Below the pieces are notes generated by a model. The model ran no database searches, was not told the origin of the DNA, and saw only the letters and a list, made by a program, of their open reading frames with translations. A stretch of 64,000 bases of DNA from a bacterium (GTDB lineage: Bacteria > JAMCPX01). Positions 3,012 to 26,054 of this stretch are shown one piece after another. The first letter of the stretch is position 1; every line of letters begins with the position of its first letter. The stretch covers positions 11,900 through 75,899 of the forward strand of contig JAJYUJ010000008.1 in assembly GCA_021792615.1 (NCBI GenBank), written 5' to 3'. A program made the position numbers and the translations under genes.

Positions 3012-4466
3012 ATGAAGAAACTTTTGACTCTGTCGGGAACACAGCTTGCGCAGATGATACGCACGAAAGAGGTTTCATCGCTTGAAATTGTAAACCTCCA
3101 TATCGAGCACATCCGGAAGGTAAATCCTTCCATCAATGCAGTTGTGCGTGACCGTTTTGATGCTGCAAGAGTGGAGGCGAAGGATGCCGACAAGCGCGTA
3201 GGGAATTCGGCGCCGGAGTCGCTCCCTCCTTTCCTCGGTGTTCCGTGCACCATAAAGGAGAGCTTCATGCTCACCGGTATGCCGAACACGTCGGGGCTTG
3301 TCGCACGGAAAAATGTTATTGCGGACCATGATGCAACCGCTGTTGAAAGATTGAAAAAATCAGGCGCAATACCTCTCGGTGTAACCAATGTCCCCGAGCT
3401 TTGCATGTGGATGGAAACGGACAACAGACTGTACGGCAGAACCAACAACCCCTATGACCGGGAACATATCGTCGGCGGCAGTTCAGGGGGAGAAGGGGCG
3501 ATCGTCGGGTCCGGAGGCTCGCCGTTCGGGCTCGGTGCCGACATAGGAGGCTCCATACGTATGCCTGCTTTTTTTAACGGCGTCTTTGGCCACAAAGCGA
3601 CAGGCGGGCTTGTACCGAATACCGGGCAGTACCCCATCGCAAGAAACAAGGCCCTCACGTATCTTACGACTGGTCCGATCGTACGCAGGGCTGAAGACCT
3701 GATGCCGCTCCTCAGGCTTATGGCCGGGCCCGACAACATAGACAAAGGGTGCACGGTTATGAAGATCGGTGCTCTGTCCGACGTTACGCTCAAAGGGTTA
3801 ACCGTAATCGATGTCGAAGATAACGGGAAAACGCGGGTCAGCAGTGACCTGAAGAAAGCACAGCGAAAAGCTGCGGACTTCCTCGGAAGCAGGGGTGCGA
3901 TCGTAAAAAGAACGAGGATTGCCGGTTTGAAAAAGTCTTTTGATATATGGGCATCCATGCTCTCGGCATCGGACCAGGAATCCTTCAGTGCAAGCCTTGG
4001 CAACGGGACTGCCATACATCCGCTGTTCGAGATGATAAAGTGGTCCATGCGCATCTCGGAACACACGCTCCCTTCGATTGTCCTCGCTATGACCGAACAA
4101 CTGTTCAAGTATATGCCAGCCCGCACAAAGAGGCTGGTGGAAGCAGGCGTAAGCCTGCGCGCGGAACTGGTGAATCTGATAGGTCAAAACGGCATTATGC
4201 TGTATCCGTCTTACTCCCGGCCTGCGCCGGAGCACAGAAAGCCGCTGCTAACACCGTTCGATTTTGCTTACACAGCGATACTCAACATGATGGAAATCCC
4301 GGTCACCCAGGTACCCCTCGGCCTCAATGAAGAAGGCCTGCCTCTCGGGGTGCAGGTCGCGTCAGTCCACGGCAACGATCATGTTACCATCGCCGTTGCG
4401 CTCGAGCTTGAAAAGGCTTTTGGAGGCTGGGTCCCTCCGGACATCGGCCTTTTGAAAAATGCATAA
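3012..4466 (+). CDS. Amidase signature family amidase (GatA-like)
   Basis: 484 aa with the GGSSGGEGA amidase signature, a conserved Ser-cisSer-Lys triad context, and GLVPNTGQYP. Confidence 0.85.
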   Translation: MKKLLTLSGTQLAQMIRTKEVSSLEIVNLHIEHIRKVNPSINAVVRDRFDAARVEAKDADKRVGNSAPESLPPFLGVPCTIKESFMLTGMPNTSGLVARKNVIADHDATAVERLKKSGAIPLGVTNVPELCMWMETDNRLYGRTNNPYDREHIVGGSSGGEGAIVGSGGSPFGLGADIGGSIRMPAFFNGVFGHKATGGLVPNTGQYPIARNKALTYLTTGPIVRRAEDLMPLLRLMAGPDNIDKGCTVMKIGALSDVTLKGLTVIDVEDNGKTRVSSDLKKAQRKAADFLGSRGAIVKRTRIAGLKKSFDIWASMLSASDQESFSASLGNGTAIHPLFEMIKWSMRISEHTLPSIVLAMTEQLFKYMPARTKRLVEAGVSLRAELVNLIGQNGIMLYPSYSRPAPEHRKPLLTPFDFAYTAILNMMEIPVTQVPLGLNEEGLPLGVQVASVHGNDHVTIAVALELEKAFGGWVPPDIGLLKNA

Positions 4467-4661: not shown

Positions 4662-6179
4662 ATGGTTAAATTTTTAAGCATTGCTTTATCGATCCTGTCT
4701 TTGATAGTAGTTGTCCAGGGGTGTTCTGAAAACAAGTCATCGCCGCAGAGCGGTAACCCCTATCTTTCAAACAGTGCATGGCCTATTATTCACCACTCCA
4801 GTTCGCAGACCGCAAGCTCACCGTTCGCAGGTCCCGGAAGCCAGGCAGGCAGACCGCCCCGTGCTGATTTCATAACCTCCACGGTCCAGGGGACCGGTCC
4901 TGTTGTTTTTGACTCAAAAGGCAATGTACTTTTTGAGAAGGTCGCGATTTTGAACCAGGTACATATCTTCAGCAAGCTGGATCCGGTTACGCTGAATACT
5001 ATTACATCCTATACCGTCAATGTTTCAGCCTCGGATCCCTTGAACGGACTGTATTCTTTTGTTGATTACCATGACTGCTGGTGGAACGCGTACAATCAAA
5101 CCTTCTTAAGGTTGTGCTTTAACGGGAATTCCATAGTCCCGGATATGTCGATTAATCTTGCGGCGCTTTATCCCACGCAGATTACATCTCAGGATTCCAT
5201 CGTCAGTATGAATCCGCTGTATGCAAGCCCTGGTATGATGGACATAGCCTTTGTTACCGAAGGCCTTCAACCCGTACATCAGGGCGGGTATTTTACACAG
5301 ACCATTACCGGTGCGAAGGTCGGGGTAATGCGTATCAACAGCGACCGCAGTATAAGCCTCTTTATGCAGGATTTCCCCAATGAGGACATAACCAATAGCT
5401 TTGCCGTTTCTCCGGATGGCGGTATCTATGTCATAACGGACAAACATGCAGTAAAGCTCATGCTTCAGCAAACGTGCTCGTGCGGTGCGGATGCATTGAA
5501 GATAGTTTGGGAAGTACCCTATGAGACGGGCTTGCCCATCCAGCAGATAGCCTGTCCCAATGCTACCCCGGATTGGGAGTGCAGAATTAATGTTATGTTG
5601 AATGGCGGCAGATTGAGTCCGGATGGCTCCGGCACAACGCCGACCCTCATGGATCACGGCAAGTACATGGTATTTGCTGATGGAGAACTTCCTCTGAAGC
5701 TGGTCGCCTTACGAACTACGGATGGCAGCGCTCTTCCCATCGATAAGCCTGTTCCGTTTACCGAAACAACGGCACAGACAGAAAATATCTGCGCGTCTTT
5801 CGGCAATACGTTTGTCATAGAGAACAACTACAGCCCCGGGGTTGCCGCCTATGAAATCACGGGTCAACCCGGCCAGGAAACGGTCAGACAGCTTTGGGTC
5901 AATTACTCTGTCTTTGCTCCGAATGCTGTCCCTCTTATTGCGGGCGGCACGGACACGGTTTATGTGTACGAGATGCAGGGACCGAGTTTCTACCCGCTTA
6001 CGACAACAACGCAGCAATGGTTTGTAACGGCACTCGATCTCGGAACAGGTGCCGTTGTATGGAGAAAACCCATTGGCAGCAATATTCCGTATAACAGCAT
6101 TTACGCGCCGCTTTCCCTCGATAACAAGCAACAAATTTATATAGGTCTTTTCGGCGGCTTGCTGAGGATCCGTCAGTAG
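4662..6179 (+). CDS. Secreted lipoprotein of unknown function
   Basis: 505 aa. N-terminal signal with a lipobox-like VVVQGC. Ser/Thr/Asn-rich, with no recognisable catalytic motif. Confidence 0.6.
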   Translation: MVKFLSIALSILSLIVVVQGCSENKSSPQSGNPYLSNSAWPIIHHSSSQTASSPFAGPGSQAGRPPRADFITSTVQGTGPVVFDSKGNVLFEKVAILNQVHIFSKLDPVTLNTITSYTVNVSASDPLNGLYSFVDYHDCWWNAYNQTFLRLCFNGNSIVPDMSINLAALYPTQITSQDSIVSMNPLYASPGMMDIAFVTEGLQPVHQGGYFTQTITGAKVGVMRINSDRSISLFMQDFPNEDITNSFAVSPDGGIYVITDKHAVKLMLQQTCSCGADALKIVWEVPYETGLPIQQIACPNATPDWECRINVMLNGGRLSPDGSGTTPTLMDHGKYMVFADGELPLKLVALRTTDGSALPIDKPVPFTETTAQTENICASFGNTFVIENNYSPGVAAYEITGQPGQETVRQLWVNYSVFAPNAVPLIAGGTDTVYVYEMQGPSFYPLTTTTQQWFVTALDLGTGAVVWRKPIGSNIPYNSIYAPLSLDNKQQIYIGLFGGLLRIRQ

Positions 6180-6262: not shown

Positions 6263-7045
6263 ATGGGTATAGTTGAATACAAGAAAAAAGCCGCGCTCGG
6301 TATTATTACCATGAACAGGCCGGATGCCATGAACGCCATCAACGCTGAACTCGGCAATGCTTTATTAAAGTCACTTATCGATGCGGAATACGATAAAGAG
6401 GTAAGGGCCATCATGCTTACCGGGACAGGAAGGGCATTCTCAAGCGGAGGGGATGTAAAAGCGATGCTCGCCAGTGCAGAGCCAAAGGGAAAGTTTTTCA
6501 AGGAGCTCACCGTTTATTTGAACGGGATCATCAACACCATACTCATGATGCGGAAACCGGTCATAGCAGGCATGAACGGTGCGGCTGCGGGTGCCGGGGT
6601 AAGCCTCGCACTCGCCTGCGATCTCGTCACTGCCGCCCGTTCTTCACGGTTCAACCTTGCATACACCAAAATAGGTCTTACGCCTGACGGCGGTGCAACG
6701 GCCATGCTCGCACACCATGTCGGGCCGAAAAGGGCCATGGAATACATCATGTTAAACCCCGACATCACCGCAGAGAAGGCATTGGAGATCGGACTGGTCA
6801 ACAGGGTTTTTGATGATGCCACCTTTATGGAGCAGACGATATCGTTTGCACAGGCTCTTGCCGGCGGGCCTACCGTTGCGTTCGCATATACGAAACGTAC
6901 CATGAACCACGCATACCCGGGGCCGCTGGAACGGATACTCGAACTCGAGCGGGAAGGCATAGCTGCCTGCGGATCCACGGAGGACTTCAAAGAGGCGAGC
7001 GCAGCCTTTGCAGAAAAGCGTACCCCGGTATTCAAGGGCAGTTAA
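6263..7045 (+). CDS. Enoyl-CoA hydratase/isomerase (crotonase family)
   Basis: 260 aa with crotonase motifs (AFSSGGD, GxNGAAAGAG oxyanion-hole region). The TAA stop codon is contributed by the first bases of the downstream MITE-like element. Confidence 0.85.
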   Translation: MGIVEYKKKAALGIITMNRPDAMNAINAELGNALLKSLIDAEYDKEVRAIMLTGTGRAFSSGGDVKAMLASAEPKGKFFKELTVYLNGIINTILMMRKPVIAGMNGAAAGAGVSLALACDLVTAARSSRFNLAYTKIGLTPDGGATAMLAHHVGPKRAMEYIMLNPDITAEKALEIGLVNRVFDDATFMEQTISFAQALAGGPTVAFAYTKRTMNHAYPGPLERILELEREGIAACGSTEDFKEASAAFAEKRTPVFKGS

Positions 7046-7268
7046 CCCGAAAAATGCGTTTGAAAAATAAGAAAGTTTAGGTGATGAGCGATAATCCCGC
7101 GTCAAATAAAGGTATTCTTCGAAAATCCGATGAGGAAACCATACCGGGTAATTGCATATAAACATACAGAGAACTTAAATCTCGTTTCTATAAAGAAACG
7201 TTTAGATATCAGGTGGATCGCGGGATTGAGCGAACAAGTAAACTTTCTTATTGCATTTTTCGGGTTAA
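7042..7268. mobile_element. MITE-like non-autonomous element, copy B (227 bp, inverted relative to copy A), with about 17-bp perfect terminal inverted repeats that begin and end in TTAA
   Basis: Starts TTAACCCGAAAAATGCG and ends CGCATTTTTCGGGTTAA (complement). The internal sequence is homologous, as reverse complement, to 41657-41893. Confidence 0.75.
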
Positions 7269-7580: not shown

Positions 7581-9473
7581 ATGAAAACAATCAACTACGA
7601 TACTGTTTATGATATTATTGTTGTAGGCGCCGGGCATGCCGGCATAGAGGCTGCGCTTGCGGGCGCACGCATGGGGTGTAATGTTTTACTGCTGACCGGT
7701 AACCTGGACACCGTAGGCTATATGTCGTGTAACCCTGCCATAGGAGGTCTCGCCAAAGGACAGCTGGTCAAAGAGATCGATGCGCTCGGCGGGCAGATGG
7801 CAAAAACAACGGATTATGCAGGCATCCATTTCAGGCGTCTGAATACCAACAAAGGTCCTGCTGTCCGTGGCAACCGCGCACAGTGCGACAGGGTCATGTA
7901 CCGGACCTTTATGAAAAAGGTCATAGAACAACAGGATGGTATTGATCTGAAACAGGCGACGGTTACCGGCATCATTGCCCGGAATAAAACCGTTCAAGGG
8001 GTGGAAACATCCCTCGGACTTAACTTTTATGGTAAAACGGTAATTCTTACAACCGGCACGTTCCTCAACGGACTTATCCACATAGGTCTCACGCATTTCC
8101 CGGCAGGCAGGGCAGGGGAGCCGCCTTCGATAGGCTTATCCGACAGCCTGACAAGTCTTGGGTTTACCATAGGCAGGCTCAAAACAGGGACCACTCCCCG
8201 GCTTGACGCAAAAACCATCGATTTTTCCGTGCTGGAACCCCAGCACAGCGATATTCCTCCTATTCCCTTTTCTTTTTCCACAGAAAAGATCACAAACCCC
8301 CTTGTCGCATGCTACATGACGTACACGAATGAGCAGGCGCACAACTTTATCCTTTCCGGCCTTGACAGGTCTCCGCTCTATTCCGGGATCATCAAAGGGA
8401 CAGGTGCCCGGTATTGCCCGTCTATCGAAGATAAGGTAGTTAAATTCAAGGACAAACAGAGGCACCAGATATTTCTGGAGCCCGAGGGCTATCAGACAAA
8501 AGAGGTATACCCCAATGGACTTGCGACAAGCTTGCCCTACGATATACAATTAAAAATGCTCAGGGCAATAAAGGGACTCGAAAAGGTCGAAATCATGAGA
8601 CCCGGCTATGCCATAGAGTACGACTTTGTCGATCCGACCCAGCTCTACCCGACACTGGAAACAAAGCTTGTTCACGGCCTTTATCACGCAGGTCAGATAA
8701 ACGGTACTTCCGGGTATGAAGAGGCTGCTGCACAGGGGATCGTCGCAGGCATCAATGCGGCATTGCAGATTCAGCATAAAGAGCAGCTTATTATAACCCG
8801 GCAACAGGCCTACATCGGCGTGCTTATAGATGACCTTGTAACAAAAGGGACTCAGGAGCCGTACAGAATGTTTACATCAAGGGCCGAGCACAGACTTATT
8901 TTAAGAGAGGACAACGCCGATATGCGCCTCAGTGATATCGGCCGGTCAACAGGGCTCCTCGGTGAAAAGGACTATCGTCTTTTTGTTCAAAGGCGCGAGC
9001 AGTACAATGACATGCTGGGTAAACTCCAGTCCAAAAAGATAAAAGGTGAAACAGCCAAAAGTATTTTAATTCAAGCAGGTTACGCAGAGATCTCCGACAC
9101 AACGACCCCATATCAACTTCTTAAAAGGCCCAATATAACAATAAAACACCTGGAATCCATTGAACCATGGCTTTTACCTATAAACAGTGCTCTTAAAGAT
9201 GCCCTCGAGGTAGAAGTAAAATATGACGGCTATATCAAAAGGGAACTGGAGTTTATAAGCAGGCTTTCAAAGCTTGAGCATACCCGAATACCGGCTTCAT
9301 TCACCTTCAGCGGCATCCCGGGTTTATCTACGGAAATAAAAGAAAAGCTCAACAAGTTCAAACCAATTACCCTTGGGCAGGCATCGCGGATATCGGGTAT
9401 TACACCTGCGGCAATAGCAATACTCGATGTGTATATAAAAAGATTCAGAACTCAGCGGCCTCCGGAAGAATAA
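7581..9473 (+). CDS. mnmG: tRNA uridine-5-carboxymethylaminomethyl modification enzyme MnmG (GidA)
   Basis: 630 aa with the FAD-binding N-terminus [20 protein letters not shown] and full-length MnmG architecture. Confidence 0.95.
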
Positions 9474-11839: not shown

Positions 11840-12529
11840 ATGGAGTTTTTGAACACAATCATCATACAACCTTTTGTTGCCTGGTATCACACCGTGGTGA
11901 GCTATATACCGAATATCCTGACCATGCTGCTTGTCATTATAATAGGATTTATGCTTGCATGGCTTTTCAGACGGATTGCACGGTTTTTATTCAAGTTGCT
12001 GAAGGTCAACGAACTCGGTGAAAAAACCGGTCTTGCCGTAATATTCAGCGATAATTCTCTCAGCGGCATCGGTGAAAGATTCATTTATTGGTTTATCGTG
12101 TTCATTTTCCTCATGCTCGGTCTGAGCGCTCTGAAACTTGCACCTATTGATCACTTGATAACGGTTTTTTTCCTCTACCTGCCGAAACTCATTGCCGCTA
12201 TTGTCATATTCATTTCCGGTTATTTGCTCGCGGATTTCCTGGACCGTATCATGGTGCTTGCTGCGGTCGGCTCTCATCTACCCCATGCAAAAGCAATCGG
12301 CAGGCTGACAAAACTCGCCGTCGTCATATTCTTTGTGTTCATTTCTCTTGACCTGCTTGAGATAGGGAAAAACGTAATCGTCGCTGCGTTCTCCATCATT
12401 TTTGGCGGTGTTGTGCTGGGGCTTGCAATAGCATTCGGATTTGGTGCGAAGGACATTGTAAGGGCATGGCTTGAAAAGCAGATAAAGGATTCGAACAACC
12501 ACAAGGACGACGGCATATCGCACCTGTGA
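11840..12529 (+). CDS. Multi-pass membrane protein with conserved-TM-helix repeats (MscS-N-terminal-like)
   Basis: 229 aa, very hydrophobic, with a repeated helix-Gly pattern and a short hydrophilic C-terminus. Confidence 0.5.
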   Translation: MEFLNTIIIQPFVAWYHTVVSYIPNILTMLLVIIIGFMLAWLFRRIARFLFKLLKVNELGEKTGLAVIFSDNSLSGIGERFIYWFIVFIFLMLGLSALKLAPIDHLITVFFLYLPKLIAAIVIFISGYLLADFLDRIMVLAAVGSHLPHAKAIGRLTKLAVVIFFVFISLDLLEIGKNVIVAAFSIIFGGVVLGLAIAFGFGAKDIVRAWLEKQIKDSNNHKDDGISHL

Positions 12530-12573
12530 GGAATAAACCGAATTAAGTAAAGATACATTTATTCCTGCTCAAA

Positions 12574-12650
12574 TGGTGTGCCTGGCGCGATTCGAACGCG
12601 CGACCCACAGCTTAGAAGGCTGTTGCTCTATCCACCTGAGCTACAGGCAC
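12574..12650 (-). tRNA. tRNA-Arg (anticodon TCT)
   Basis: The reverse complement reads GTGCCTGTAGCTCAGGTGGATAGAGCAACAGCCTTCTAAGCTGTGGGTCGCGCGTTCGAATCGCGCCAGGCACCA. This folds as a cloverleaf with a T-loop GTTCGAATC, anticodon loop CTTCTAA, and an encoded CCA. Confidence 0.85.
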
Positions 12651-12681
12651 ATCTTTCCGAAAGTAAATCATTCATACAACA

Positions 12682-12758
12682 TCGGGGCGAGCCGATTTGA
12701 ACGGCCGACCTCTTGCTCCCAAGGCAAGCGCTCTGGACCAGGCTGAGCTACGCCCCGC
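12682..12758 (-). tRNA. tRNA-Pro (anticodon TGG)
   Basis: The reverse complement reads GCGGGGCGTAGCTCAGCCTGGTCCAGAGCGCTTGCCTTGGGAGCAAGAGGTCGGCCGTTCAAATCGGCTCGCCCCGA. Cloverleaf with anticodon loop CTTGGGA. CCA is not encoded. Confidence 0.8.
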
Positions 12759-13040
12759 TAATAATAATACCTACCAACTTTCCTGGTTAATCTCAACCTT
12801 GCCTTGTCCGCCCGCCCGCTCACCTTCTCGCGGGCGTGAACAAACCTGAGGCTCTTTCTTCATCACCTCGTTCACCCCAAGGCAAGCGCTCTGGACCAGG
12901 CTGAGCTACGCCCCGCTAATACATTACCTATCAAATTCTCTCAGCCTTCACCATAATTGCCTTGTCCGCCCGCCTGCTCACCTTCTCGCAGGCGTGAACA
13001 ATCGTGAGGCTCTTTCTTCATCGCCTCGTTTATTGCATAT
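12716..13040. repeat. Tandem duplication, two units of about 160 bp. Each unit comprises the 5' half of tRNA-Pro plus about 120 bp of its upstream flank and carries an internal CGCCCGC...GCGGGCG hairpin.
   Basis: Unit 1 (about 12716-12875) and unit 2 (about 12876-13040) are around 85-90% identical by eye: ccaaggcaagcgctctggaccaggctgagctacgccccgctaata...ccttgccttgtccgcccgcc(c/t)gctcaccttctcgc(g/a)ggcgtgaacaa... Confidence 0.8.
12876..12917 (-). pseudogene. Truncated tRNA-Pro fragment (5' half through the anticodon loop), produced by the tandem duplication
   Basis: Over about 41 nt it is identical to 12718-12758 of the intact tRNA-Pro. It lacks the T-arm and acceptor 3' strand. Confidence 0.75.
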
Positions 13041-13196
13041 TAATAGTAACAACAATGACCGAGAAATGCAATACTGAAACCATACAATGATTATTTTCCT
13101 TTATTCAAGTACAACTCTACGTGCTATCCTGTACGGAGCTAGTTTAAGTACCGTTCTAAATAAATTATGTATTAAATTACATATAAGGAGAGTGCT

Positions 13197-13403
13197 ATGG
13201 CAAAGACAACCGTTGATATAGATGAGAATCTTTTAAAGGAAGCACGCAAAATCACCCATCTGAAAACGAAGAAGGCTATCATTGAAAGAGGCATCCGAGA
13301 ACTTCTGAGGATAAATTCTCAGGAGCTCTTGAAGCAGGAACTCGGATCTTTCGATATCGAACTTTCACTTGATGAACTAAACAAGAAAAGGAGGCAAATA
13401 TGA
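13197..13403 (+). CDS. VapB-type (DUF2191/PF09957-like) type II antitoxin-like protein, with no cognate toxin gene adjacent
   Basis: 68 aa, MAKTTVDIDENLLKEARKITHLKTKKAIIERGIRELLR, matching the TTxDIDxxLLxEA...TKKxxIExxLREL signature of VapB antitoxins. Confidence 0.55.
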   Translation: MAKTTVDIDENLLKEARKITHLKTKKAIIERGIRELLRINSQELLKQELGSFDIELSLDELNKKRRQI

Positions 13404-13632
13404 CCAGAAAAGGAACAACAGGCGTATGCCCAATCTGCGGGGGCACAAAAAAAGAGGTAAAACTACCTTTACAGCAGACATGGGTTCTGGCATCGTAGTA
13501 GTAAGGGACGTCCCTGCCACGATATGTTCCCAGTGCGGAGCAGATTGGATTAGAGACCCTGTTGCTGCAAAACTGGAGAAGATCGTTGAAGATACCCGAG
13601 AAAACATACTATTGTTGAAGCTACAACGCTGA
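13400..13632 (+). pseudogene. YgiT-type zinc-finger (MqsA N-domain-like) antitoxin-like gene, interrupted by a -1 frameshift in an A7 homopolymer
   Basis: Frame A reads MTRKGTTGVCPICGGTKKEV... then stops. Frame B continues GKTTFTADMGSGIVVVRDVPATICSQCGADWIRDPVAAKLEKIVEDTRENILL. Adding one A to acaaaaaaagagg restores a canonical 77-aa YgiT-type protein (CPxCGG...TTFTxDxGxGVVVxxxVPAxxCxQCGExW). Confidence 0.7.
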
Positions 13633-13840
13633 CCGTATAATGGCCGTTACAGAATTCGGAAAAAATCGAATGTTAAGTTCCCCGAGAATTCCCATAAGAA
13701 ATGTTATGTCAACTATTAATTTCGAATAAGTTAGAACTCTCCCAGAACCTCGTGATTGCCCCGTAATCACCCCATCACATCCGTGGCGCTGCCTTGCCCG
13801 TAGGTTATCCCTTATCAGATCCCATTATTTATTATGTTTC

Positions 13841-14473
13841 TTAATAATGATATAGAAGTGTAATATTTACTGACGTGGTACTTCCATCGCTACTAATCGG
13901 TAAGCTTACTGTTGTATTTGTTCCCCCTCCGGATACATTAATTTTATCATAAGCAAAGTAATGGTAGATTACTTCTGCGCCAAGAGACAGATAACTGGTT
14001 AAGTATCCTTCATACCCAATACCAAGATCGATTCCTATATTTGGATTTGCTGTATATGTCATTTTAGGATTTACATTAGATGTTTGCAATACGCGATTAA
14101 CATAGCCTCCACCGATTAAAAAGTATATGTTGTTTGTCTTATTCAAAGGAATTATAGGTTTTACATTCAAATACGGCAATTCCATAAAGCTCCACGAACC
14201 ATTTAAATTTTGAGGGGAGCTGAATCTGCCAATACCTTGATCATACCCTAACTCTAATGCCAGATAATCAATAAACTGATACCCACCTCTTATTGTCCAG
14301 CCAGGAGCCAGCGAATAACCATCTTCATTCGGGCCAGTTGGATTATCTATCCCAGCACCAACACCAACATATAGCCCATTATGATCGCCAGCAAATACAG
14401 AAGGTGTCATACAAAAACTTACTGTTAATAACGTAGCAACCATAATACTCGTAAACTGAACTATATTTTTCAT
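13841..14473 (-). CDS. Outer-membrane beta-barrel protein (OmpA-like transmembrane domain/porin family)
   Basis: 210 aa with a signal peptide, alternating amphipathic beta-strand pattern, Gly/Tyr-rich composition and a C-terminal aromatic residue (...LLYHY). Low GC. Confidence 0.7.
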   Translation of the reverse strand: MKNIVQFTSIMVATLLTVSFCMTPSVFAGDHNGLYVGVGAGIDNPTGPNEDGYSLAPGWTIRGGYQFIDYLALELGYDQGIGRFSSPQNLNGSWSFMELPYLNVKPIIPLNKTNNIYFLIGGGYVNRVLQTSNVNPKMTYTANPNIGIDLGIGYEGYLTSYLSLGAEVIYHYFAYDKINVSGGGTNTTVSLPISSDGSTTSVNITLLYHY

Positions 14474-14513
14474 AGAGTCTGCCTCCTTTTCTTGGTGCTC
14501 TTATTGATATTCT

Positions 14514-16091
14514 TTAATATATTGCATAAAGGTAACCATCTGTTGAGGCAATATAGATCGTTCCATCTGCTCCGATTGCAGGGGAAGACGAGTAAATTGC
14601 TCCACCTGTTTGATATGTCCACCTTGGAAAACCTGTCGATTTAAATGCAAAGAGCTTGCCATCAGTGGAGCCTACATAGATTGTTCCATCTGCACCGATT
14701 GCTGGAGAAGATTGTATGGGTACAAATGTTACATATATCCATTTTAAAGTTCCATCGGGATTGATTGCATAAAAAAGTCCGCTTGCTGTACCAAAATATA
14801 TTGTTCCATCAGGACCTATGGCAGGGGCAGTTAAAGTAGTTTCTGTAATATCGCTGTCATAATAGTTCCATTGCTCGTCTCCATTTGAATTAATTGATAA
14901 AAGAGAACTGTATTCTATTCCGCCACCATATACGCTGAAGTAAGTACAACCACTTGTTCCTATTGCTGGAGGAGATGCAAGCCCGAACAATTCACCACGT
15001 GGAGCACTGCGCCATTCAGGTGTTCCATCGGGATCAGTGGCACTTTCTATTCCAGCTAGTTGTGTACCGTAAAGTATTCCATTAGTGTCTATTGCTGGTG
15101 CAGTATATGGATATAAAGGAATATCAAAGGAATTCAAATACATTTTAAGAGTACCATTAGAATTTATTGCAAGCAGATCTCCAGATAGATCTCGAGATAT
15201 TACTACATATATAGTTCCATCGGTTCCTATAGTAGGAGAAGAAGGAATAGCGGGGTATACACCAGTCAATGAAGGATGAATCAGTGAATACAAAGCTCCA
15301 ATTTGATAAGTCCATTTCAGAGTGCCATCTTGATTCAGGGCATACAGCATTTCTCCACCGTTGTTAGTGGAATAACCACTTACATAGATGGTTCCATCTT
15401 CTCCTATTGCTGCAACTGGAAAGATAAAATTTTCGGCGGCATAACCGTTTTGAAGTCCTGTACCTCTAATGTTAGATGAAATGTTCCATCCTGTTGAATA
15501 TGTCCATTTTAACCCACCTGTTGAATTCAATGCATACAATATCCCGTTATCGGCACAGATGATGTAGATTGTTCCACTTGCATCTATGGTAGGAGAACCG
15601 CATGCAATACCAATCTGATGCTTCCATCTGAGTGTACCCGTTGTTGAGCTTGTATCAACGCCGCTCAATCCGGTTTGTTCTAAATTCTGCATGTACTTGG
15701 GCCAGGGAGCATTCGTCTGAAGTTTAATGGGTCCTGTAGAAGTTTGTGTATCCAACTTTGTGGTTTCTTTTGTAAATGGAGATGATGAACCAGCATAGGT
15801 AACTGTAACTGTTGCATTCCCTGCATCTCCATACGTATATGGCGATGAGATTGCCACGGTCATATTATGACTATCCGTAGCTATGCTAAACCCATTTGTT
15901 GCGCCCCAAGTGTAATAAAGATTTGCTCCTTGAGGTGCATCTACGTTCACTGATAAAAGGATAATCCCTCCGGGTGCTGGCACTCCAGATTCTGTTATGT
16001 ATCGGATAATCAGTGGTTGATGTTGTGTGTTTTGCTTACCACAATTTATGAGGGCAAGAATACCCACGATGCATATAAAAACTTTTGGCAT
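14514..16091 (-). CDS. Secreted PQQ-like beta-propeller repeat protein (BamB-like fold) with an N-terminal Ig-like region
   Basis: 525 aa with a signal peptide and repeated blades ending in SPAIGxDGTIYVGSxDGxLYA. Low GC. Confidence 0.75.
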   Translation of the reverse strand: MPKVFICIVGILALINCGKQNTQHQPLIIRYITESGVPAPGGIILLSVNVDAPQGANLYYTWGATNGFSIATDSHNMTVAISSPYTYGDAGNATVTVTYAGSSSPFTKETTKLDTQTSTGPIKLQTNAPWPKYMQNLEQTGLSGVDTSSTTGTLRWKHQIGIACGSPTIDASGTIYIICADNGILYALNSTGGLKWTYSTGWNISSNIRGTGLQNGYAAENFIFPVAAIGEDGTIYVSGYSTNNGGEMLYALNQDGTLKWTYQIGALYSLIHPSLTGVYPAIPSSPTIGTDGTIYVVISRDLSGDLLAINSNGTLKMYLNSFDIPLYPYTAPAIDTNGILYGTQLAGIESATDPDGTPEWRSAPRGELFGLASPPAIGTSGCTYFSVYGGGIEYSSLLSINSNGDEQWNYYDSDITETTLTAPAIGPDGTIYFGTASGLFYAINPDGTLKWIYVTFVPIQSSPAIGADGTIYVGSTDGKLFAFKSTGFPRWTYQTGGAIYSSSPAIGADGTIYIASTDGYLYAIY

Positions 16092-16113
16092 ATTTTTTTC
16101 TTCTCAAGAATGC

Positions 16114-18999
16114 TTAGTATATACCACTCGGGAAAATTAGATTTATGCATGAGTTGTTTTGGTTATTTTCTATGCTTGATAAGAATATTTCGTCAAGCTT
16201 AGAAGGAGCATACTTAAACTCTCCATAATGATAAAACGCAGGACCTCCTTTACTAGGTGAATGTGGGACAAGAATAGGCTGGGAAATGGTGCCCTTGTTG
16301 TCCGTAGGACATAATGATTGTGGAAGAGTTTGAGATGCCATATAACCATATTCTTTTAGTGGCCCTATGACTGCATTGCTTATCTTTATTGCATTGGCTT
16401 TCATATTACTTGCAATTAGTGGATTCAATATAGCTTGTGAAAAGAATCCTTCGCATGCGCTATATAAATCAGTAGGGAGAGTGGGATCTACCACTATTGC
16501 TGCGGAACCTACTGCTGCTGATATTGCGGTGCATAGACCGTCTATTTGTTCTTGAGGAATCTTAACGGCTTGAACGGCAGCGTCTACAGAATCTGTAGAA
16601 AAATCTAATATATTACTTGTTGTGATATACGGCTCTAATTTAAGCGTCAGCCATGGCACATCAATCTCGGGAGTCATATTCCAAACTGGTCCATCAGACC
16701 ATCCAGCTTTGCATTGGGGATATCCTTGGCTCCAATCAACGGAGTAACACGGATTTTTCCACCAAGTTTTAATATACATGCTGACATTTATTTGTCTTGC
16801 TATTAAAGATATAGTTATACTTCCGTTATTGTTTGTAGTAATAATGGGGGAGCTGGAATTATCTAATGTGGCGGAGTCGATGATTATATTACCCTTTATC
16901 TGTACTCCAGCCTTAAAAGTATTAGTGGGATCTGGTTTTGCATTATTAGCATTACCTATTGTTGGGATAGTAGTATAAGCTGCCTTCTCCAGTTCTGTAA
17001 ATGGAACAAACCCACCATTGTAATAAGTTTGGCAACCACTATTGATGGTCGTTCCATTGAAGGTATAAACAACCTTCGGATCCCCCTTGGGACAGAGATA
17101 ATAACCCGGAACGAATGTCGATGGCCTGCATGACGGATCCACTTTTATTGAACATTCATAATCAAGTGGATCAATTAAATCAGGTGCACAATTTGGATTT
17201 ACCCATGTAGCTGTTGTAAATTCTTGATTACAATAATAAGTCTGGTTATCTGTGGTAGTTTGACCATGGGTATAATCATAATAAAGCTGAAGTATAACAG
17301 CTATGGCGTTATTCAGATTATTATCATTGATTTTTTGTTCCGCTTGATATAGAGGATTACTTGGGGACAACTCATAGGTGCCATTATCTTCCGTTATATC
17401 CTTAACCATTGAAGGGCATATCTGTCCTCCAATACTGTAATTGCCATTATTACACAATGGTAACAGAGTACTTAGAAGAGTGTTCAATAAGGACATGGGA
17501 CCCATATTTCCTATAAGAAGTTGGCATGGTTGATCCATGATACAGTTTTTATCATTGCTGCAATCGGAATAATTTTCGCAAAGGAATGGTACTACCTTAT
17601 TTGTTGGCTGGTAGTTGACTGTAATGAAATCGGTTCCTCTGTTTGTTCCCGCTGTGTTATAACCCGTTGCCACCAGTGTTTGTATACCAGGTTTTGTAAA
17701 TGGCACTACGCCACTCGTCGAGAAATTTATACCAGATGTCCCTGTGCTTGTAGTAGCACTGGTTGCAAGTATATTATTAGAAGGAGAAGTAATTGTTACA
17801 CTTGCAATATCAGAAGTAGCATCACCATATAAGCTAAACGGTGCGGTTATCGTGGGTATGTTCACATTGTCGCTTTGAGGATTGTCTATACGAATAGGCG
17901 ATGTGTGAAATGTCGTTACCTGGTCAGCTATACTATAATTGCTGCTCTCCAATGGGTTGGCAGATAAATCCTGATTACCTGCGAGCCCAGTAGGCATATT
18001 ACATTTTACCGTGGGATAAGTAAGCTTATACACTGTATCAATATCAAACCCATTTGCAGACGCTATTGTATAGCTGAATGGTTCATATGCTGGCCATTGA
18101 TTGTCCACGGTTAAGAATGTTGAAAATGTAGTATTCCAATTACCAAGCATAACATTACTATATCCTGCGTATTGACTACCGTCGACAGGAGAAAAATTCC
18201 CGCTGCTATCTTTCTTTTCAAATGCAAATTCTACAGGAGAATATAAGGTGCGTGAGAAATTCGTTGTAAACGGATAGTGTGGTGGGACGTTCATATAATC
18301 TGCATCTGGTAATGGTGCTAGTCCCATAGAACCTCCATTACCAGCTAACCAGTTCAAGAACAAGAAGAAATCGACTATACCTCCGGCAACAAGTACTTGA
18401 GCTCCAGACACAGCTCCAAACTCATTACCGTATTCGTATGATTTTACAGTCACTGGTGCACCATACTGCTGAACCGCTTCGAAAGTGTAGATGGTATTTA
18501 CCAGGGCATTGGGATTGTTTTCCAAGGAAATACCAGATTGGGTTTGTAGACCTCCATTATAGTTTACAAAAAAGTCAGCTTGTTCATACCATGCAATCTG
18601 CTGAAGATTTATCCATAAAGTAAGTTCCGTTCCTGTCGAATCAAATGAGCTATGCGTAAAATTAAGCCCAGTGACTATCCCTGCGCTGGGAAGTATTTCG
18701 ATTCCATTCATAACGAATGTTCCGGGTGCATATGTAGCCGTATTTATGGGGGAAATAAAATCTATTATTAACGCAAGTTGATTTGTAGGCTGAATCAATC
18801 TACCGCATTGTGGATATAGATGAACATCTTTTATATAATTCGCCATAAAGGCGGTATTCGGGGGTAAAGTCGTTGGAGTACAAGAGCCACCTCCACTATT
18901 AAAACTACAACCACCTCCAAATGTATTATTACACTGGACAGACGACATAATGAGTATGAACAAAACACCTATTGATAAGAGTAGATATGATCCCTTCAT
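16114..18999 (-). CDS. Giant secreted Asn/Thr/Ser/Gly/Cys-rich protein of unknown function; putative surface or adhesin-like protein
   Basis: 961 aa with an N-terminal signal (MKGSYLLLSIGVLFILIMSSVQC). Many NxT/S sequons, paired Cys clusters (CENYSDCSNDKNC, CNQEFTTATWVNPNC) and no recognisable catalytic domain. Low GC; operonic with the neighbouring secreted proteins. Confidence 0.7.
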   Translation of the reverse strand: MKGSYLLLSIGVLFILIMSSVQCNNTFGGGCSFNSGGGSCTPTTLPPNTAFMANYIKDVHLYPQCGRLIQPTNQLALIIDFISPINTATYAPGTFVMNGIEILPSAGIVTGLNFTHSSFDSTGTELTLWINLQQIAWYEQADFFVNYNGGLQTQSGISLENNPNALVNTIYTFEAVQQYGAPVTVKSYEYGNEFGAVSGAQVLVAGGIVDFFLFLNWLAGNGGSMGLAPLPDADYMNVPPHYPFTTNFSRTLYSPVEFAFEKKDSSGNFSPVDGSQYAGYSNVMLGNWNTTFSTFLTVDNQWPAYEPFSYTIASANGFDIDTVYKLTYPTVKCNMPTGLAGNQDLSANPLESSNYSIADQVTTFHTSPIRIDNPQSDNVNIPTITAPFSLYGDATSDIASVTITSPSNNILATSATTSTGTSGINFSTSGVVPFTKPGIQTLVATGYNTAGTNRGTDFITVNYQPTNKVVPFLCENYSDCSNDKNCIMDQPCQLLIGNMGPMSLLNTLLSTLLPLCNNGNYSIGGQICPSMVKDITEDNGTYELSPSNPLYQAEQKINDNNLNNAIAVILQLYYDYTHGQTTTDNQTYYCNQEFTTATWVNPNCAPDLIDPLDYECSIKVDPSCRPSTFVPGYYLCPKGDPKVVYTFNGTTINSGCQTYYNGGFVPFTELEKAAYTTIPTIGNANNAKPDPTNTFKAGVQIKGNIIIDSATLDNSSSPIITTNNNGSITISLIARQINVSMYIKTWWKNPCYSVDWSQGYPQCKAGWSDGPVWNMTPEIDVPWLTLKLEPYITTSNILDFSTDSVDAAVQAVKIPQEQIDGLCTAISAAVGSAAIVVDPTLPTDLYSACEGFFSQAILNPLIASNMKANAIKISNAVIGPLKEYGYMASQTLPQSLCPTDNKGTISQPILVPHSPSKGGPAFYHYGEFKYAPSKLDEIFLSSIENNQNNSCINLIFPSGIY

Positions 19000-19010
19000 A
19001 AGTACCTCCC

Positions 19011-19886
19011 TTAGTATGTGTTTGGTATCAATTGCTTTATGTAGCCCATTGCGTTGTTAAGCATCTCATTCGTTATGTAAGATGGTGGATCCTGGTTGGA
19101 TAATGCAATCTTTGCCTTTGTCTGGGGCGTTGATTGCGTAAAGGATTCTATCTGAGAAAGCGATCTCGCAGATGCGAGCGCTGTCAGTGAATTATTGTTG
19201 GGATTGTTAATAATTGATTGTAGAACAGGTTCCAATGCTTTATTGTACGTGTTCCCGCTTGATTCTGCACAGGCAGCTTGGAGAAGATCGGGCTGACTTG
19301 AATCAAGACAATATTCAAATGTCTTTATAATCTTATGAAGATAATGACTGCTGCCCTCTTCATTATTATCATCTCCATCATTACATCTTTCGGAAGAATT
19401 ATCACGGTTATTTAAAACAATATAATGAGCTAATTGGCCAAGCGTAATCGCTGCCTCTATCCTCAAACTGAGTTCAAACTTGTAAGCGCTCGGGGTAGCT
19501 GAAGCGTTACACGCATTTGAGAACTTATTAAAAATGCTCGAATCATCATCTATCTTCTGCGTTACAATGGTACTTGTGCCTTTTATCGTCTCGTAAAGCT
19601 TGCCTTCATATGCAACATCCAACGCCTTCGAAACGACCTGCTGTGCATGGGTTTGTGGATGCTCTAAGATTTCTTCTGCCGCTCCATAACGCTCATGCTT
19701 TTTATCACTGTTCAATCGGTTAAGTAAATCTTGTTCTCTGTTGCTAAACCAGGAAATAAACGATTGGCACTGAGGTGAAATGGTGGTATTGTTTTGTCCT
19801 GATCGATCGTCGTCGCTGAATGCTGAATTTAATACAAATCCTAGGAACAAGGATATTACACTTAGAAACAAAAGAATTCTTTTCAT
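19011..19886 (-). CDS. Secreted/lipoprotein-like protein with HEAT/PBS-lyase-like repeats, unknown function
   Basis: 291 aa with a signal peptide. Helical repeats such as EAAITLGQLA. It is the first gene of the four-gene low-GC operon. Confidence 0.55.
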   Translation of the reverse strand: MKRILLFLSVISLFLGFVLNSAFSDDDRSGQNNTTISPQCQSFISWFSNREQDLLNRLNSDKKHERYGAAEEILEHPQTHAQQVVSKALDVAYEGKLYETIKGTSTIVTQKIDDDSSIFNKFSNACNASATPSAYKFELSLRIEAAITLGQLAHYIVLNNRDNSSERCNDGDDNNEEGSSHYLHKIIKTFEYCLDSSQPDLLQAACAESSGNTYNKALEPVLQSIINNPNNNSLTALASARSLSQIESFTQSTPQTKAKIALSNQDPPSYITNEMLNNAMGYIKQLIPNTY

Positions 19887-19904
19887 ACAAAGCCCTCCTT
19901 CTCA

Positions 19905-19938
19905 ACCGTCTATATTTGAAACCCTCTATCGGGTTTCA
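19905..19938. promoter_or_regulatory. Perfect 14-bp inverted repeat (TATATTTGAAACCC-tctatc-GGGTTTCAAATATA), 15-50 nt upstream of the island operon start codon; candidate operator or 5'UTR hairpin
   Basis: Read directly from the sequence. It sits between the putative promoter region and the RBS of the 19886 gene. Confidence 0.5.
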
Positions 19939-20322
19939 AATATACTAAAACAAATCTGCTTTTAAAGGTGAACTAAGTTGTTTCTACATTCGTGATTAAT
20001 CTTAGATAAATCAGAAATACTTATAGTTGTCAAGAGTCTAGTTTTCGATCAAAGCTGTAGTCGATAATGTAAAGTAGGTGCACGAAGATCCTCGAAGCCC
20101 AGCGGCTTCTCTACACCGTTCAAAAAACGTCCCTTTTTGGAACGCTTATTTTAAATCTCGGTTTCAGAGGGAAGCGTTTACCCTGTTTTGATACCCCTTT
20201 TTTGGACACCAAAAAGAGCTTATCAAGCATGCGGTCATCCGCGATAATAAACGAATGTATCTTGTCCAGGGGTTGTTGTAGAGAACGTACGAATAAGACA
20301 GAAGAAACCGATCGTTTATTGC

Positions 20323-20817
20323 TCAGGGCTGTTTCTTTGATTTGCCTGAAAACAGCAGGTCGATGGCGAGCAGGATTGCTCCGACGGTGATCGCACTGTC
20401 CGCTACGTTGAACGCAGGCCAGTGCGTGTTTTTTACAAACACATCTATAAAATCCACAACGTAACCGAGCCGTATCCGATCGATAACATTTCCAACCGCA
20501 CCGCCCATGATCATGGATAATGCGATCATGGACAATCCGGTCATGTCCTTCGAAAACAGATATACAAAAAACAGTACAATAAAAACGGCTACCGACAGCA
20601 CCGTAAGCATCGTTGTCCGGAATATACACTGGCCGTTGTTGAACATACCGAAAGCAACCCCCCGGTTATAGACACTGACGAGATCAAGGAAACCCGGGAC
20701 GATAACAACCTGCCGGGTAAGGTAATGGACCACAAGGTATTTTGACACCTGATCCAGCAGCACGATAACAGCGGCTATCAGAACGAGGGTCGTCAGCCTC
20801 TGCTTTAAGGGTATCAT
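20323..20817 (-). CDS. lspA: Lipoprotein signal peptidase II
   Basis: MIPLKQRLTTLVLIAAVIVLLDQVSKYLVV...NRGVAFGMF...FNVADSAI. The start overlaps the ileS stop. The tracked ORF 20323..20907 is N-terminally over-extended. Confidence 0.9.
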   Translation of the reverse strand: MIPLKQRLTTLVLIAAVIVLLDQVSKYLVVHYLTRQVVIVPGFLDLVSVYNRGVAFGMFNNGQCIFRTTMLTVLSVAVFIVLFFVYLFSKDMTGLSMIALSMIMGGAVGNVIDRIRLGYVVDFIDVFVKNTHWPAFNVADSAITVGAILLAIDLLFSGKSKKQP

Positions 20818-24187: not shown

Positions 24188-25576
24188 TTACTTGCCTATG
24201 CAGAATTCTGCAAAGATCTTATCGAGTATATCCTGCGATGTCACTTCTCCGGTAAGCTCTTTCAGTCCGACAAGCGCGCTGTCGACTTCTTCGGCGACAA
24301 TTTCCGGGAATGCCTGTTGATCGATAAGATTGATGGCTGCATTTAAGGAAAGCTCTATATGTTCCAGTGCCTGCTTATGCCGGTACCTGTTTATGACCGG
24401 CGCATTCTCGATCGAGGGCGATAGAGCGGGTCCTGAAACGCCCTGTACGAGTGACTCGACGCCTTCGCGCGTTTTAGCCGATACCGGGAATACGGAATAA
24501 TCCTCAAATGCATTTTTTGCCTGTTCAATCTGGTCTGCGGATGCAATATCCACTTTGTTTATCGCGATAATGACATTGTCCTTGTGCTCTTGTGCGATCG
24601 AGAGTTCTTCGTCGTAACGAGACGCTGCCGCCGGATCAATAACAATGATGACGATATCCGATTTTTCTACCCTGCTGCGGGTCATCTCCATACCAAGCTT
24701 TTCGATAGGCTCTTCGCTGTTCCGGATCCCCGCAGTGTCGGTAAATACGAGTTTTACGCCTTTGTGGTTGATTACTTCTTCTATATAGTCCCTCGTCGTT
24801 CCCGGATGGGGTGTAACTATGGCCCTGTTTTCTCCGACGATTGCGTTAAAAAGGCTTGATTTGCCCGCGTTGGGCCTTCCAATCAATACAACGTGTATGC
24901 CTTCCCGTATAATTTTTGCATGGTCGTAACTTTTCAATACGTGTACGACCTCATCATGCGCAGCCTGCAGTATGAACTTCAGATCGAACAATTGCTTTGG
25001 GGAAGCTTCCTCCTCCGGAAAATCTATCAGCACTTCTAAGTTTGTTTTTACCTGAACGAGCTTTTTCTTTATCGAAGAAATAAACTCGGACAGTACGCCC
25101 GAAATCTGTTTTATTGCCTGCACTCTCGCAGCGTCTGTATCCGCCCGAACAAGATCCAAAACCGCTTCCGCCTGTAACAGATCCATCTTGCCATTCAAAA
25201 ATGCCCGTCTGGTAAATTCTCCCCTGTCTGCAAGCCTTGCCCCGGCCTTCAATACTCTCTGCAAAACGGAGTTGATGACATTCGAACCTCCGTGCGTGTA
25301 TATCTCCACCATTTCCTCCCCGGTGTAGGTTTTGCCGGCTTTCATAAAAGCGATCAATACCTGATCGAGAGAAGAGGTGTTTGCCCCATTCATAACAGAA
25401 CCCCGGTACAATCTGTGGCTCTGATATTTTTTTATGGGTTTTGAAGGTAAAAATATCTCCCGGAATATTTGGTATGCCTTGTTGCCGCTCAGCCGGACTA
25501 TGCCTATGGCGCCTTCACCCTGGGCCGTGCTTATGGCAGCAATGGTGTCGGTTGTTACGATTGTATTTTTTTTCAT
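24188..25576 (-). CDS. mnmE: tRNA modification GTPase MnmE (TrmE)
   Basis: 462 aa with G-domain motifs (GRPNAGKSSL, DTAG) and the C-terminal CIGK motif. Confidence 0.95.
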   Translation of the reverse strand: MKKNTIVTTDTIAAISTAQGEGAIGIVRLSGNKAYQIFREIFLPSKPIKKYQSHRLYRGSVMNGANTSSLDQVLIAFMKAGKTYTGEEMVEIYTHGGSNVINSVLQRVLKAGARLADRGEFTRRAFLNGKMDLLQAEAVLDLVRADTDAARVQAIKQISGVLSEFISSIKKKLVQVKTNLEVLIDFPEEEASPKQLFDLKFILQAAHDEVVHVLKSYDHAKIIREGIHVVLIGRPNAGKSSLFNAIVGENRAIVTPHPGTTRDYIEEVINHKGVKLVFTDTAGIRNSEEPIEKLGMEMTRSRVEKSDIVIIVIDPAAASRYDEELSIAQEHKDNVIIAINKVDIASADQIEQAKNAFEDYSVFPVSAKTREGVESLVQGVSGPALSPSIENAPVINRYRHKQALEHIELSLNAAINLIDQQAFPEIVAEEVDSALVGLKELTGEVTSQDILDKIFAEFCIGK

Positions 25577-26054
25577 AGTACTGTTTTATTCAGTTTAATC
25601 TTTTACCGCTTGTCACGGCAACGATTATAAAACCTATTCCTATTCTGTGCATATTCATGTACAAGTGTCAATCTGACAGAGAGTATCCACTCTCAAAAAC
25701 CTTCCCGGTTTGCCGCTCAATGTTTGCTATCATCAAAAGCTTGACAAGCAGGAATTATAGCATAATATGAAGTTGTGAAAAAGACTAAATTACTTTTATA
25801 TTTCAATAAGTTAGTCAATAACAACACTTTGTGGTCAGTTTTTTACACTATACCATATATTGTTTATATTTAATGGTTTTTTTTCGCATGAAAAGCAGGG
25901 GAAAAGCACAGAAAATGAATGGTAACTATTTGTATTATATATACTTTACAGGTTTTCCACAGGTGTTGAAAAACTTGTGTGTTTCTCATGCTGGTTTGCT
26001 TTTGATCTCAACAAGTTACACTACAAGTTATATGATAATTATAAGGGGGCCTCT
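25577..26054. other. AT-rich mnmE-dnaA intergenic region; candidate oriC / dnaA promoter region
   Basis: About 480 bp at around 30% GC. DnaA-box-like 9-mers: TTTTCCACA near 25953 and GTATCCACT near 25683. There are few perfect boxes. Confidence 0.4.

Follow-up and report, generated by a model that had tools for sequence, protein, structure and literature searches.

The window analyzed here, a 64-kb stretch of the bacterial contig JAJYUJ010000008.1, carries on its minus strand a small tRNA cassette in which an intact tRNA-Pro(TGG) gene (12682 to 12757; called by ARAGORN, 63 bits against the Rfam tRNA model) is followed by a second gene, tRNA-Arg(TCT) (12574 to 12650; ARAGORN, 68.4 bits). Ahead of the intact tRNA-Pro, its 118-base upstream leader and the first 40 bases of the tRNA itself are repeated head-to-tail. 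The result is a single array spanning 12718 to 13030, with a period of 158, 2.0 copies, 86% matches, 3% indels, and a score of 473 in Tandem Repeats Finder. This array, its relatives, and its likely origin are the subject of this report.

Each unit, read on the tRNA strand, consists of a 74-nt GC-rich block with two hairpins (B), a 41-nt AT-rich promoter-like stretch (P'), and bases 1 to 40 of tRNA-Pro(UGG), of which the extra copy is called H. The order along the locus is B2, P'2, H, a GTG trinucleotide with B1, P'1, intact tRNA-Pro, and tRNA-Arg. The tRNA part of the proximal unit lies inside the intact gene (12718 to 12757), directly downstream of P'1 (12758 to 12798). B1, which reads AACGAGG...GGACAAGGCAA, occupies 12799 to 12875 together with the 3-nt GTG joint and matches a covariance model of the block with 106 bits. 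H (12876 to 12915) is an exact 40-nt match to 12718 to 12757 and is preceded by P'2 (TGATAGGTA; 12916 to 12956) and B2 (12957 to 13030; covariance-model match of 104 bits at 12955 to 13033), all on the minus strand. The 40-nt tRNA piece and 6 bases upstream of it form a 46-nt stretch that is 100% identical between the copies, and a second shared stretch, 12799 to 12872 versus 12957 to 13030, is 93% identical over 74 nt, with B1 and B2 differing at 5 of 74 positions. P'1 and P'2 are 66% identical. The upstream neighbor of B2 is an antitoxin cassette, in the place where B1 has the tRNA half.

The original prediction, made from the letters of the window alone, had described a head-to-tail duplication of the 5' half of tRNA-Pro with its upstream flank, and two 158-bp units are indeed present. 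The GC-rich hairpin that it reported, CGCCCGC...GCGGGCG, is found in B1 at 12813 to 12836, with a lower stem spanning 12803 to 12844; its distal counterpart in B2 (12971 to 12994) reads CGCCTGC...GCAGGCG, with both sides of the stem altered and the pairing preserved. The polarity, however, has to be turned around: the fragment was thought to follow the intact tRNA-Pro, but on the transcribed strand it precedes it.

Bases 1 to 40 of tRNA-Pro occur exactly twice in the window, compared with no matches in 100 shuffles, and the 3' half occurs once, inside the intact gene. H ends at tRNA base 40, which corresponds to canonical position 37 (the 37/38 border), in the anticodon loop and one base 3' of the anticodon. 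Because H lacks a 3' half and is recognized as a tRNA by neither ARAGORN nor Rfam, it cannot make a tRNA and is most likely a passenger.

The array is real and not an assembly artifact. All sequences compared in this work are short-read metagenome assemblies, and Logan de Bruijn-graph contigs as well as some MEGAHIT contigs end within tRNA or H sequence, which might be taken as signs of a collapsed or expanded repeat but is also expected of a true one. Seven other assembly records (three NCBI metagenome-assembled genomes and four ENA assemblies) contain the exact 668-bp intergenic sequence from 12530 to 13197, and L022, a relative with approximately 93% identity, shares the two-unit layout while carrying substitutions of its own; together, these observations exclude an error peculiar to the window contig. 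The two units also differ at many positions and therefore supply unique k-mers. We consider an artifact extremely improbable.

Relatives were drawn from a clade defined by the neighboring genes for a 734-amino-acid (aa) glycosyltransferase and a 229-aa membrane protein. The clade comprises uncultured bacteria whose records are labeled Deltaproteobacteria or Pseudomonadota, and homologs of the 229-aa protein are 73 to 100% identical inside it and less than 40% outside. The tRNA-Pro loci of these relatives fall into five states, in which both the extra halves and the blocks number from 0 to 2. First, L011, L032 to L036, and L044 have the 229-aa gene, a sigma-70 promoter (P), tRNA-Pro, and tRNA-Arg, with no block and no half. 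Second, L013 shares the co-directional context of L011 but reads P-H-B-P'-tRNA, with one half, in an inverted cassette. Third, L018 (and with it L014) reads ileS-lspA-P-H-B-P'-H-B-P'-tRNA, convergent with the 229-aa gene and free of the AT-rich island that adjoins the array in the window. The two 159-nt units of L018 are 100% identical, and the contig of L014, from the same lineage, breaks inside the repeat. Fourth, L039, L016, and L027 have the antitoxin cassette followed by B-P'-tRNA, that is, a single block and no half. Fifth, the window and L022 have the antitoxin cassette followed by B-P'-H-B-P'-tRNA.

The members of the fourth state represent one species (their 229-aa genes are 99% identical). 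We had suspected that the single unit of L016 was a chimeric assembly, on account of its 1.65x coverage and a spacer identical to that of L022, and dropped this idea because the same layout occurs on the 316-kb contig of L039 and in a third assembly of that species.

Several features of the array are constant across these states. The joint H|GTG|AACGAGG is identical in the window, L022, L018, L014, and L013, and half and gene are separated by 118 bp (±1 nt) wherever the unit is full length. The promoter before the distal H in L018 (TTGCAAttt...TATTAT) is the same as that before the intact gene in L011 and L032, and the distal half in L018 and L013 keeps this native promoter. A shortened unit of approximately 94 nt is found in L009 (1517 to 1640), a 94.7% identical relative, in which all that remains of B after H is its last ~15 nt; the H of L009 has one mismatch to the gene, at the contig end. 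In the same locus, CTTGCCTTG-GGGCGGA-CAAGGCAAG forms a perfect 9-bp hairpin.

The surroundings of the cassette differ among lineages. Relative to the adjacent 229-aa gene, the tRNA-Pro/tRNA-Arg cassette points one way in some lineages and the opposite way in others (orientations were compared in L011 at 6915 to 7114, L013 at 12979 to 13316, L032 at 4819 to 5032, L044 at ~4060 to 4223, and the window at 12574 to 12757). Its other neighbor varies among lspA-ileS, a hydrolase gene, and others, and in four further lineages, the 229-aa gene lies away from the tRNAs. The cassette thus appears to be a rearrangement hotspot.

The presence of the array in L018, which has no island, and in the inverted cassette of L013 indicates that it is independent of the AT-rich island. 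This is at odds with the proposal of a recent local duplication tied to the island, since the same junction is found in these two island-free loci. Alignment with related genomes had been suggested as a means of telling whether one or two units are ancestral. The alignments did establish that copy number varies from 0 to 2, but the ancestral state did not follow from them: reconstruction left at least two histories that fit equally well, namely, a tandem duplication in a lineage with block-P'-tRNA or an illegitimate joint between P-tRNA and block-P'-tRNA alleles.

Comparison of the halves with their resident genes provides insight into how the array has been maintained. H equals bases 1 to 40 of the resident gene in the window, in L022, in L018 (twice), and in L013, and its D-loop base tracks that gene, being T in L013 and C in the others. 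The probability of zero differences in 40 positions would be 0.002 if the divergence of the whole unit applied and 0.06 if that of B did. These comparisons indicate that H evolves in concert with the resident tRNA-Pro gene. Alleles of the array also appear to move between species. The distal spacer of L022 is 100% identical to the spacer of L016, although the 229-aa genes of the two are 78% identical, and in this pair, identity jumps from ~80% to 100% exactly at the tRNA half. Similarly, each unit of the window is closer to some unit in another species than the two are to each other.

We therefore consider it somewhat probable, and our preferred explanation, that the array of two tandem units at the promoter and leader of the tRNA-Pro(UGG)-tRNA-Arg(UCU) cassette goes back to an old joint and was afterwards shaped by homologous recombination. 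One ancient illegitimate event would have joined the 5' end of B to the tRNA at position 37/38. From then on, the invariant 40-nt tRNA piece and B would serve as a crossover substrate for homologous recombination, which could expand the array (as in the two identical units of L018), contract it, possibly giving the single-unit and no-unit alleles, and combine alleles of different species (as in the window and L022, with a crossover at the half in the L022/L016 pair). Gene conversion would hold H identical to the working tRNA-Pro gene.

Another account is a simple, recent, neutral tandem duplication made in place in the window genome, by slippage or unequal crossing-over. The head-to-tail layout, with one period and two copies, is what such an event would leave, and the identical units of L018 show that duplications of this kind happen at the locus. 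Nevertheless, the window units are only 86% alike, the same junction recurs in lineages whose genes are 71 to 87% identical as well as in the inverted cassette, and the units of the window find their closest matches in other species, among relatives that have anywhere from 0 to 2 extra halves. The original prediction leaned toward a local duplication of this type; in light of the relatives, we regard it as very improbable.

Other observations count against a history of illegitimate joining and homologous recombination. The duplicated piece ends exactly at 37/38, where integrases of the anticodon type cross over; breakpoints placed at random would reach the 7-nt anticodon loop only ~9% of the time. 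No microhomology is visible at the joint; GAGGT, shared by tRNA bases 46 to 50 and block bases 7 to 11, was considered and discarded because the observed joint sits elsewhere. In L018 and L013, a distal half with the native promoter and an intact gene behind a different upstream sequence make up the layout of 5'-type site-specific integration. The perfect identity of H could stem from selection on H instead of gene conversion, and the polarity among the single-unit, half-bearing, and no-block states seems compatible with either of the two histories given above, if not more. Finally, the copy number of the identical units in L018 rests on short-read assemblies, of which that of L014 breaks in the repeat. 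An attempt to relate P to the stretch upstream of the window's distal block gave an alignment too weak to use.

Site-specific integration would account for several of these points. The array might be the scar or miniature of an integrase-mediated "5'-fragment" insertion, in which an attP carrying B...P'-tRNA(1-40) recombined in the tRNA-Pro anticodon loop. The native promoter and 5' half (H) would have been displaced and the gene rebuilt behind the promoter of the element, of which 118 bp would be left, unless it was never larger; tandem units would result from repeated integration (accretion). An end fragment that starts at tRNA base 1, lies upstream of an intact cognate gene in the same orientation, and ends in the anticodon loop, with identity ending at canonical position 37, fits the configuration rules of Islander (PMC4383910). 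In that survey, 159 of 3919 islands had a 5' fragment and 2083 had an anticodon-centered site (PMC4383910). The native promoter retained by the displaced fragment in L018 and L013 likewise resembles this class, as do a junction that is identical across lineages with different flanks and orientations and a unit that is more conserved than the flanking genes.

On the other hand, neither the interval between fragment and gene nor the adjacent island contains an integrase, and the interval is 118 bp of noncoding DNA with no tyrosine integrase, compared with the database minimum of at least 2 kb between fragment and gene (PMC4383910). In every lineage, B runs directly into P' with no cargo in between, and the cargo of the window and of L039 is outside, upstream of B. 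In the window, the 7-kb AT-rich island lies outside the fragment-gene interval, with no fragment at its far end, unlike the Islander class. The strong divergence of P', but not of B, argues against a recent spread of whole units. Searches of phage and plasmid collections with the 118-nt spacer, and of viral contigs with the conserved 26-nt core of B, yielded no match, and the species of L039 and L016 has B-P' without a displaced fragment. Taken together, we assign integration a minor, though not trivial, chance of being the origin of the array. The decayed att site that the original prediction named as an alternative likewise keeps some probability as the source of the very first junction.

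A more speculative version would make the 158-bp unit itself a minimal integrative module lacking an integrase, which a trans-acting recombinase inserts into the tRNA-Pro anticodon loop from the 5' side. We consider this idea doubtful. If it were true, the native promoter and half-gene would be displaced and the gene rebuilt behind the promoter of the module, tandem accretion and movement between lineages would follow, and B would be conserved as the binding arm of the recombinase.

The conservation of B is exceptional. In full-length units, B is always exactly 74 nt and is 89 to 97% identical between lineages; in the same lineages, P', the least conserved part of the unit, is 41 to 83% identical, and the adjacent 229-aa gene is 71 to 87% identical at the DNA level. 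B appears to be the part under selection. In 239 kb of sequence searched, the covariance model of B matches only these copies, upstream of tRNA-Pro, and a scan of JGI metagenomes recovered its conserved 26-nt core in one contig. We rejected the idea that B is a dispersed repeat or miniature inverted-repeat transposable element on the basis of this confinement and of core and spacer searches that came back nearly empty. A small open reading frame (ORF) in the block (MKKEPQVCSRP...) was dismissed as well: the differences between copies fall at second codon positions, are radical, and lie in paired hairpin bases, and the GAGG is 2 nt from the ATG.

P'1 contains TTAACC-18-TATTAT and TGGTAGGTA; in a consensus scan of 12500 to 13250, this was the sole sigma-70-like match, and it is weak and not above the expectation from shuffled sequence. 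The same type of scan found only P in L018 and L013, and so the whole array would be leader there. A hairpin followed by a T-run, as in an intrinsic terminator, was found on neither strand in the window, L018, or L013. B most likely works in cis on the tRNA operon, from an upstream or leader position, either as a DNA site or as leader RNA. On the plus strand at 12847 to 12861, opposite the tRNA and downstream of a hairpin, the block reads GGCTCTTTCTTCA and matches the 7-nt core of the boxA antitermination signal (GCTCTTT). This match has probably arisen by chance, and its orientation would make no sense in L013.

Going further, the H-B module could be a functional RNA. The H-B leader would mimic the 5' half of the tRNA and compete for the 3' half of the precursor, forming a folding switch that tunes tRNA-Pro output, or H-B would be a small RNA with tandem promoters. 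Structure prediction offers some encouragement. An RNAalifold consensus of seven distinct blocks contains two hairpins, a small one (GAGGY/CCTC) and a long, GC-rich one with the lower stem UUUGUUC/GGACAAG. The helices include G-U pairs, which would be C-A mismatches on the opposite strand, and one pair alternates among C-G, U-G, and U-A. At the 3' end of B, CAAGGCAAG (12798 to 12806, its last base in P'1) is the exact reverse complement of tRNA bases 30 to 38 and overlaps the lower stem of B, which creates two mutually exclusive pairings. L009 has lost 60 nt of B yet keeps the CAAGGCAAG part. Moreover, B is better conserved than coding sequence and fixed in length, H stays identical to the gene, minimum-free-energy folds let the distal H capture the 3' strand of the acceptor, and the sole good promoter of L018 and L013 lies before the distal H, from which H-B would be transcribed.

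Statistical and comparative evidence points the other way. Pairing is kept at 97.9% over the 20 predicted pairs of B, yet a single pair has changed on both sides, and the covariation score was reached by 72 of 500 shuffles and is not significant. For folds of single sequences, z-scores reach only about -2.1 to -2.4. An Rfam scan of the spacer region, with E-values up to 1, returned only the two tRNAs and a sub-threshold match to YrlA, a Y RNA-like family. The same paired changes would be expected of a palindromic site bound by a protein, and gene conversion explains the identity of H equally well. The module is also dispensable, with one species having B without H and three lineages having neither. 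A functional RNA of this kind is therefore rather unlikely in our view. As for the YrlA match itself (12594 to 12734), its 26 bits, against a gathering score of 69, reflect tRNA similarity only.

Among known systems, the closest likeness is to the tRNA-Tyr operon tyrT of Escherichia coli, where downstream repeats of 178 bp in 3.14 copies are the source of rtT RNA and each unit carries the last 19 nt, or 3' end, of tRNA-Tyr. Both are tandem arrays in a tRNA operon whose unit combines a piece of the tRNA gene with flanking sequence. In tyrT, unequal homologous recombination generates and resizes the array, with a copy number that depends on the strain; the locus described here likewise has head-to-tail units of one period, variation in copy number, and signs of concerted evolution. 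The repeats of the window, however, lie upstream and contain the first 40 nt with the promoter/leader, whereas those of tyrT lie downstream and contain the 3' end. There is no sequence relationship between the two, and Rfam finds no rtT match in the window. The tRNA piece of the window array is also kept identical to the gene across lineages. By analogy, the array may be regarded as an upstream, 5'-half counterpart of tyrT that adds concerted evolution and exchange of alleles between species. The tyrT repeats were reportedly described by Egan and Landy in 1978 and by Rossi and colleagues in 1981. A literature search for these repeats and for similar 5'-half arrays returned nothing usable.

Less close parallels come from mobile elements, split tRNA genes, and tandem promoters. 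Among streptococcal integrative and conjugative elements, cis-mobilizable elements (CIMEs) and tandem accretion at att sites are familiar; CIMEs are kilobase-sized and coexist with an integrase-bearing element. They share with the array the arrangement of short, gene-poor segments between att-like repeats at a tRNA-type target, with tandem growth possible, but no related element or integrase is in view at the window locus. Another comparison is with intron-containing and split tRNAs, since 37/38 is the canonical position of tRNA introns and H, a stand-alone 5' half, stops exactly after position 37 and gives way to GC-rich, structured sequence. Here, however, the host is a bacterium, in which no splicing endonuclease is expected, and an intact tRNA-Pro is adjacent; Rfam yielded no intron (group I) match at E-values up to 1, and no separate 3' half is present in the window. 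Split tRNA genes of this sort were reportedly found in Nanoarchaeum by Randau and coworkers in 2005. Finally, operons for stable RNAs can have tandem promoters, such as rrn P1 and P2, which are ~120 bp apart. The window resembles them in having two promoter-like stretches 158 bp apart before a stable-RNA operon with a conserved upstream region. It differs in that the second promoter copy brings a piece of the gene with it and in that P' is a predicted promoter with one weak consensus match.

The region beyond the distal block has a history of its own. An antitoxin mini-cassette on the plus strand (13037 to 13677) comprises a VapB-like gene (13197 to 13403; Pfam PF09957) and a 68-aa zinc-ribbon ORF (13426 to 13632). 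This ~640-bp stretch is 96 to 100% identical in four lineages (window, L022, L039, and L016), against 70 to 88% for the surrounding backbone, and the antitoxin/zinc-ribbon pair is a recently exchanged mini-cassette. The expectation that the island boundary is recombinationally active is borne out by the same contrast. The cassette has no PIN toxin; in L012, an 86% identical VapB homolog sits beside a PIN-like ORF in a different context.

Lineage-specific, AT-rich cargo follows (13678 to 20121; GC content, 0.38 to 0.42), with genes for an outer membrane beta-barrel, a beta-propeller, and proteins of 961 aa and 291 aa, up to a conserved flank of ~200 bp downstream of lspA (20122 to 20322) that is not part of the island. 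Nine 33-nt repeats at 14514 to 16091 (families D1, D2, and D5) make up the blades of a beta-propeller lipoprotein encoded by a 525-aa ORF. Between the same flanks, the gene content of L039 is wholly different, and L018 lacks the island altogether; the AT-rich island is a mosaic, inserted separately and abutting the distal block.

The sole repeat bracketing the AT-rich segment is an 11-mer, GCAATAAACGA, which has two matches in the window on the same strand, compared with 0.06 expected. The first (13026 to 13036, minus strand) overlaps the first 5 bases of B2, and the second (20312 to 20322, minus strand) immediately follows the lspA stop codon. The lspA-side sequence of L039, GGAACAAACGA, matches it at 9 of 11 positions. 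The pair may be a relic of island insertion with a short duplication. If so, the empty site would be the lspA stop followed directly by GCAATAAACGAGG...block.

The tRNA half does not appear to take part in this insertion. A precomputed Pfam list shows no integrase domain (PF00589) among the six island genes. The original prediction had pointed to the lspA side as the place where a third partial copy of tRNA-Pro might be found; exact and 3-mismatch searches detected none at 19.9 to 20.3 kb or elsewhere in the window, and local alignments of the tRNA or the unit against 19890 to 20330 gave scores within the shuffled range, with no decayed tRNA-Pro piece. With neither a third tRNA piece nor an integrase, H is not an att partner of the AT-rich island, and the earlier view that the locus is not a classical attL/attR pair holds.

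In its wider setting, the window also contains mnmG (7581 to 9473), mnmE (24188 to 25576, minus strand), dnaA (25977 to 27371), and dnaN (27557 to 28651). A second AT-rich stretch (GC content, 0.33 to 0.41) and a cumulative GC-skew minimum at ~25 to 26 kb indicate that the replication origin lies within the window, ~13 kb from the tRNA array.

We propose that this locus shows how, in nature, a conserved tRNA sequence can serve as a portable handle for recombination. With a 40-nt piece of tRNA in front of the gene, the array could gain and lose units, and alleles could pass between species that share only ~75 to 80% identity. The array also carries a warning for annotation, because H passes most rules for calling tRNA-associated islands and adjoins an AT-rich island, yet does not delimit it. 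The 74-nt block, in turn, may represent a new cis-element in the tRNA operon of this uncultured clade, and it is the part of the array that might repay experiment.

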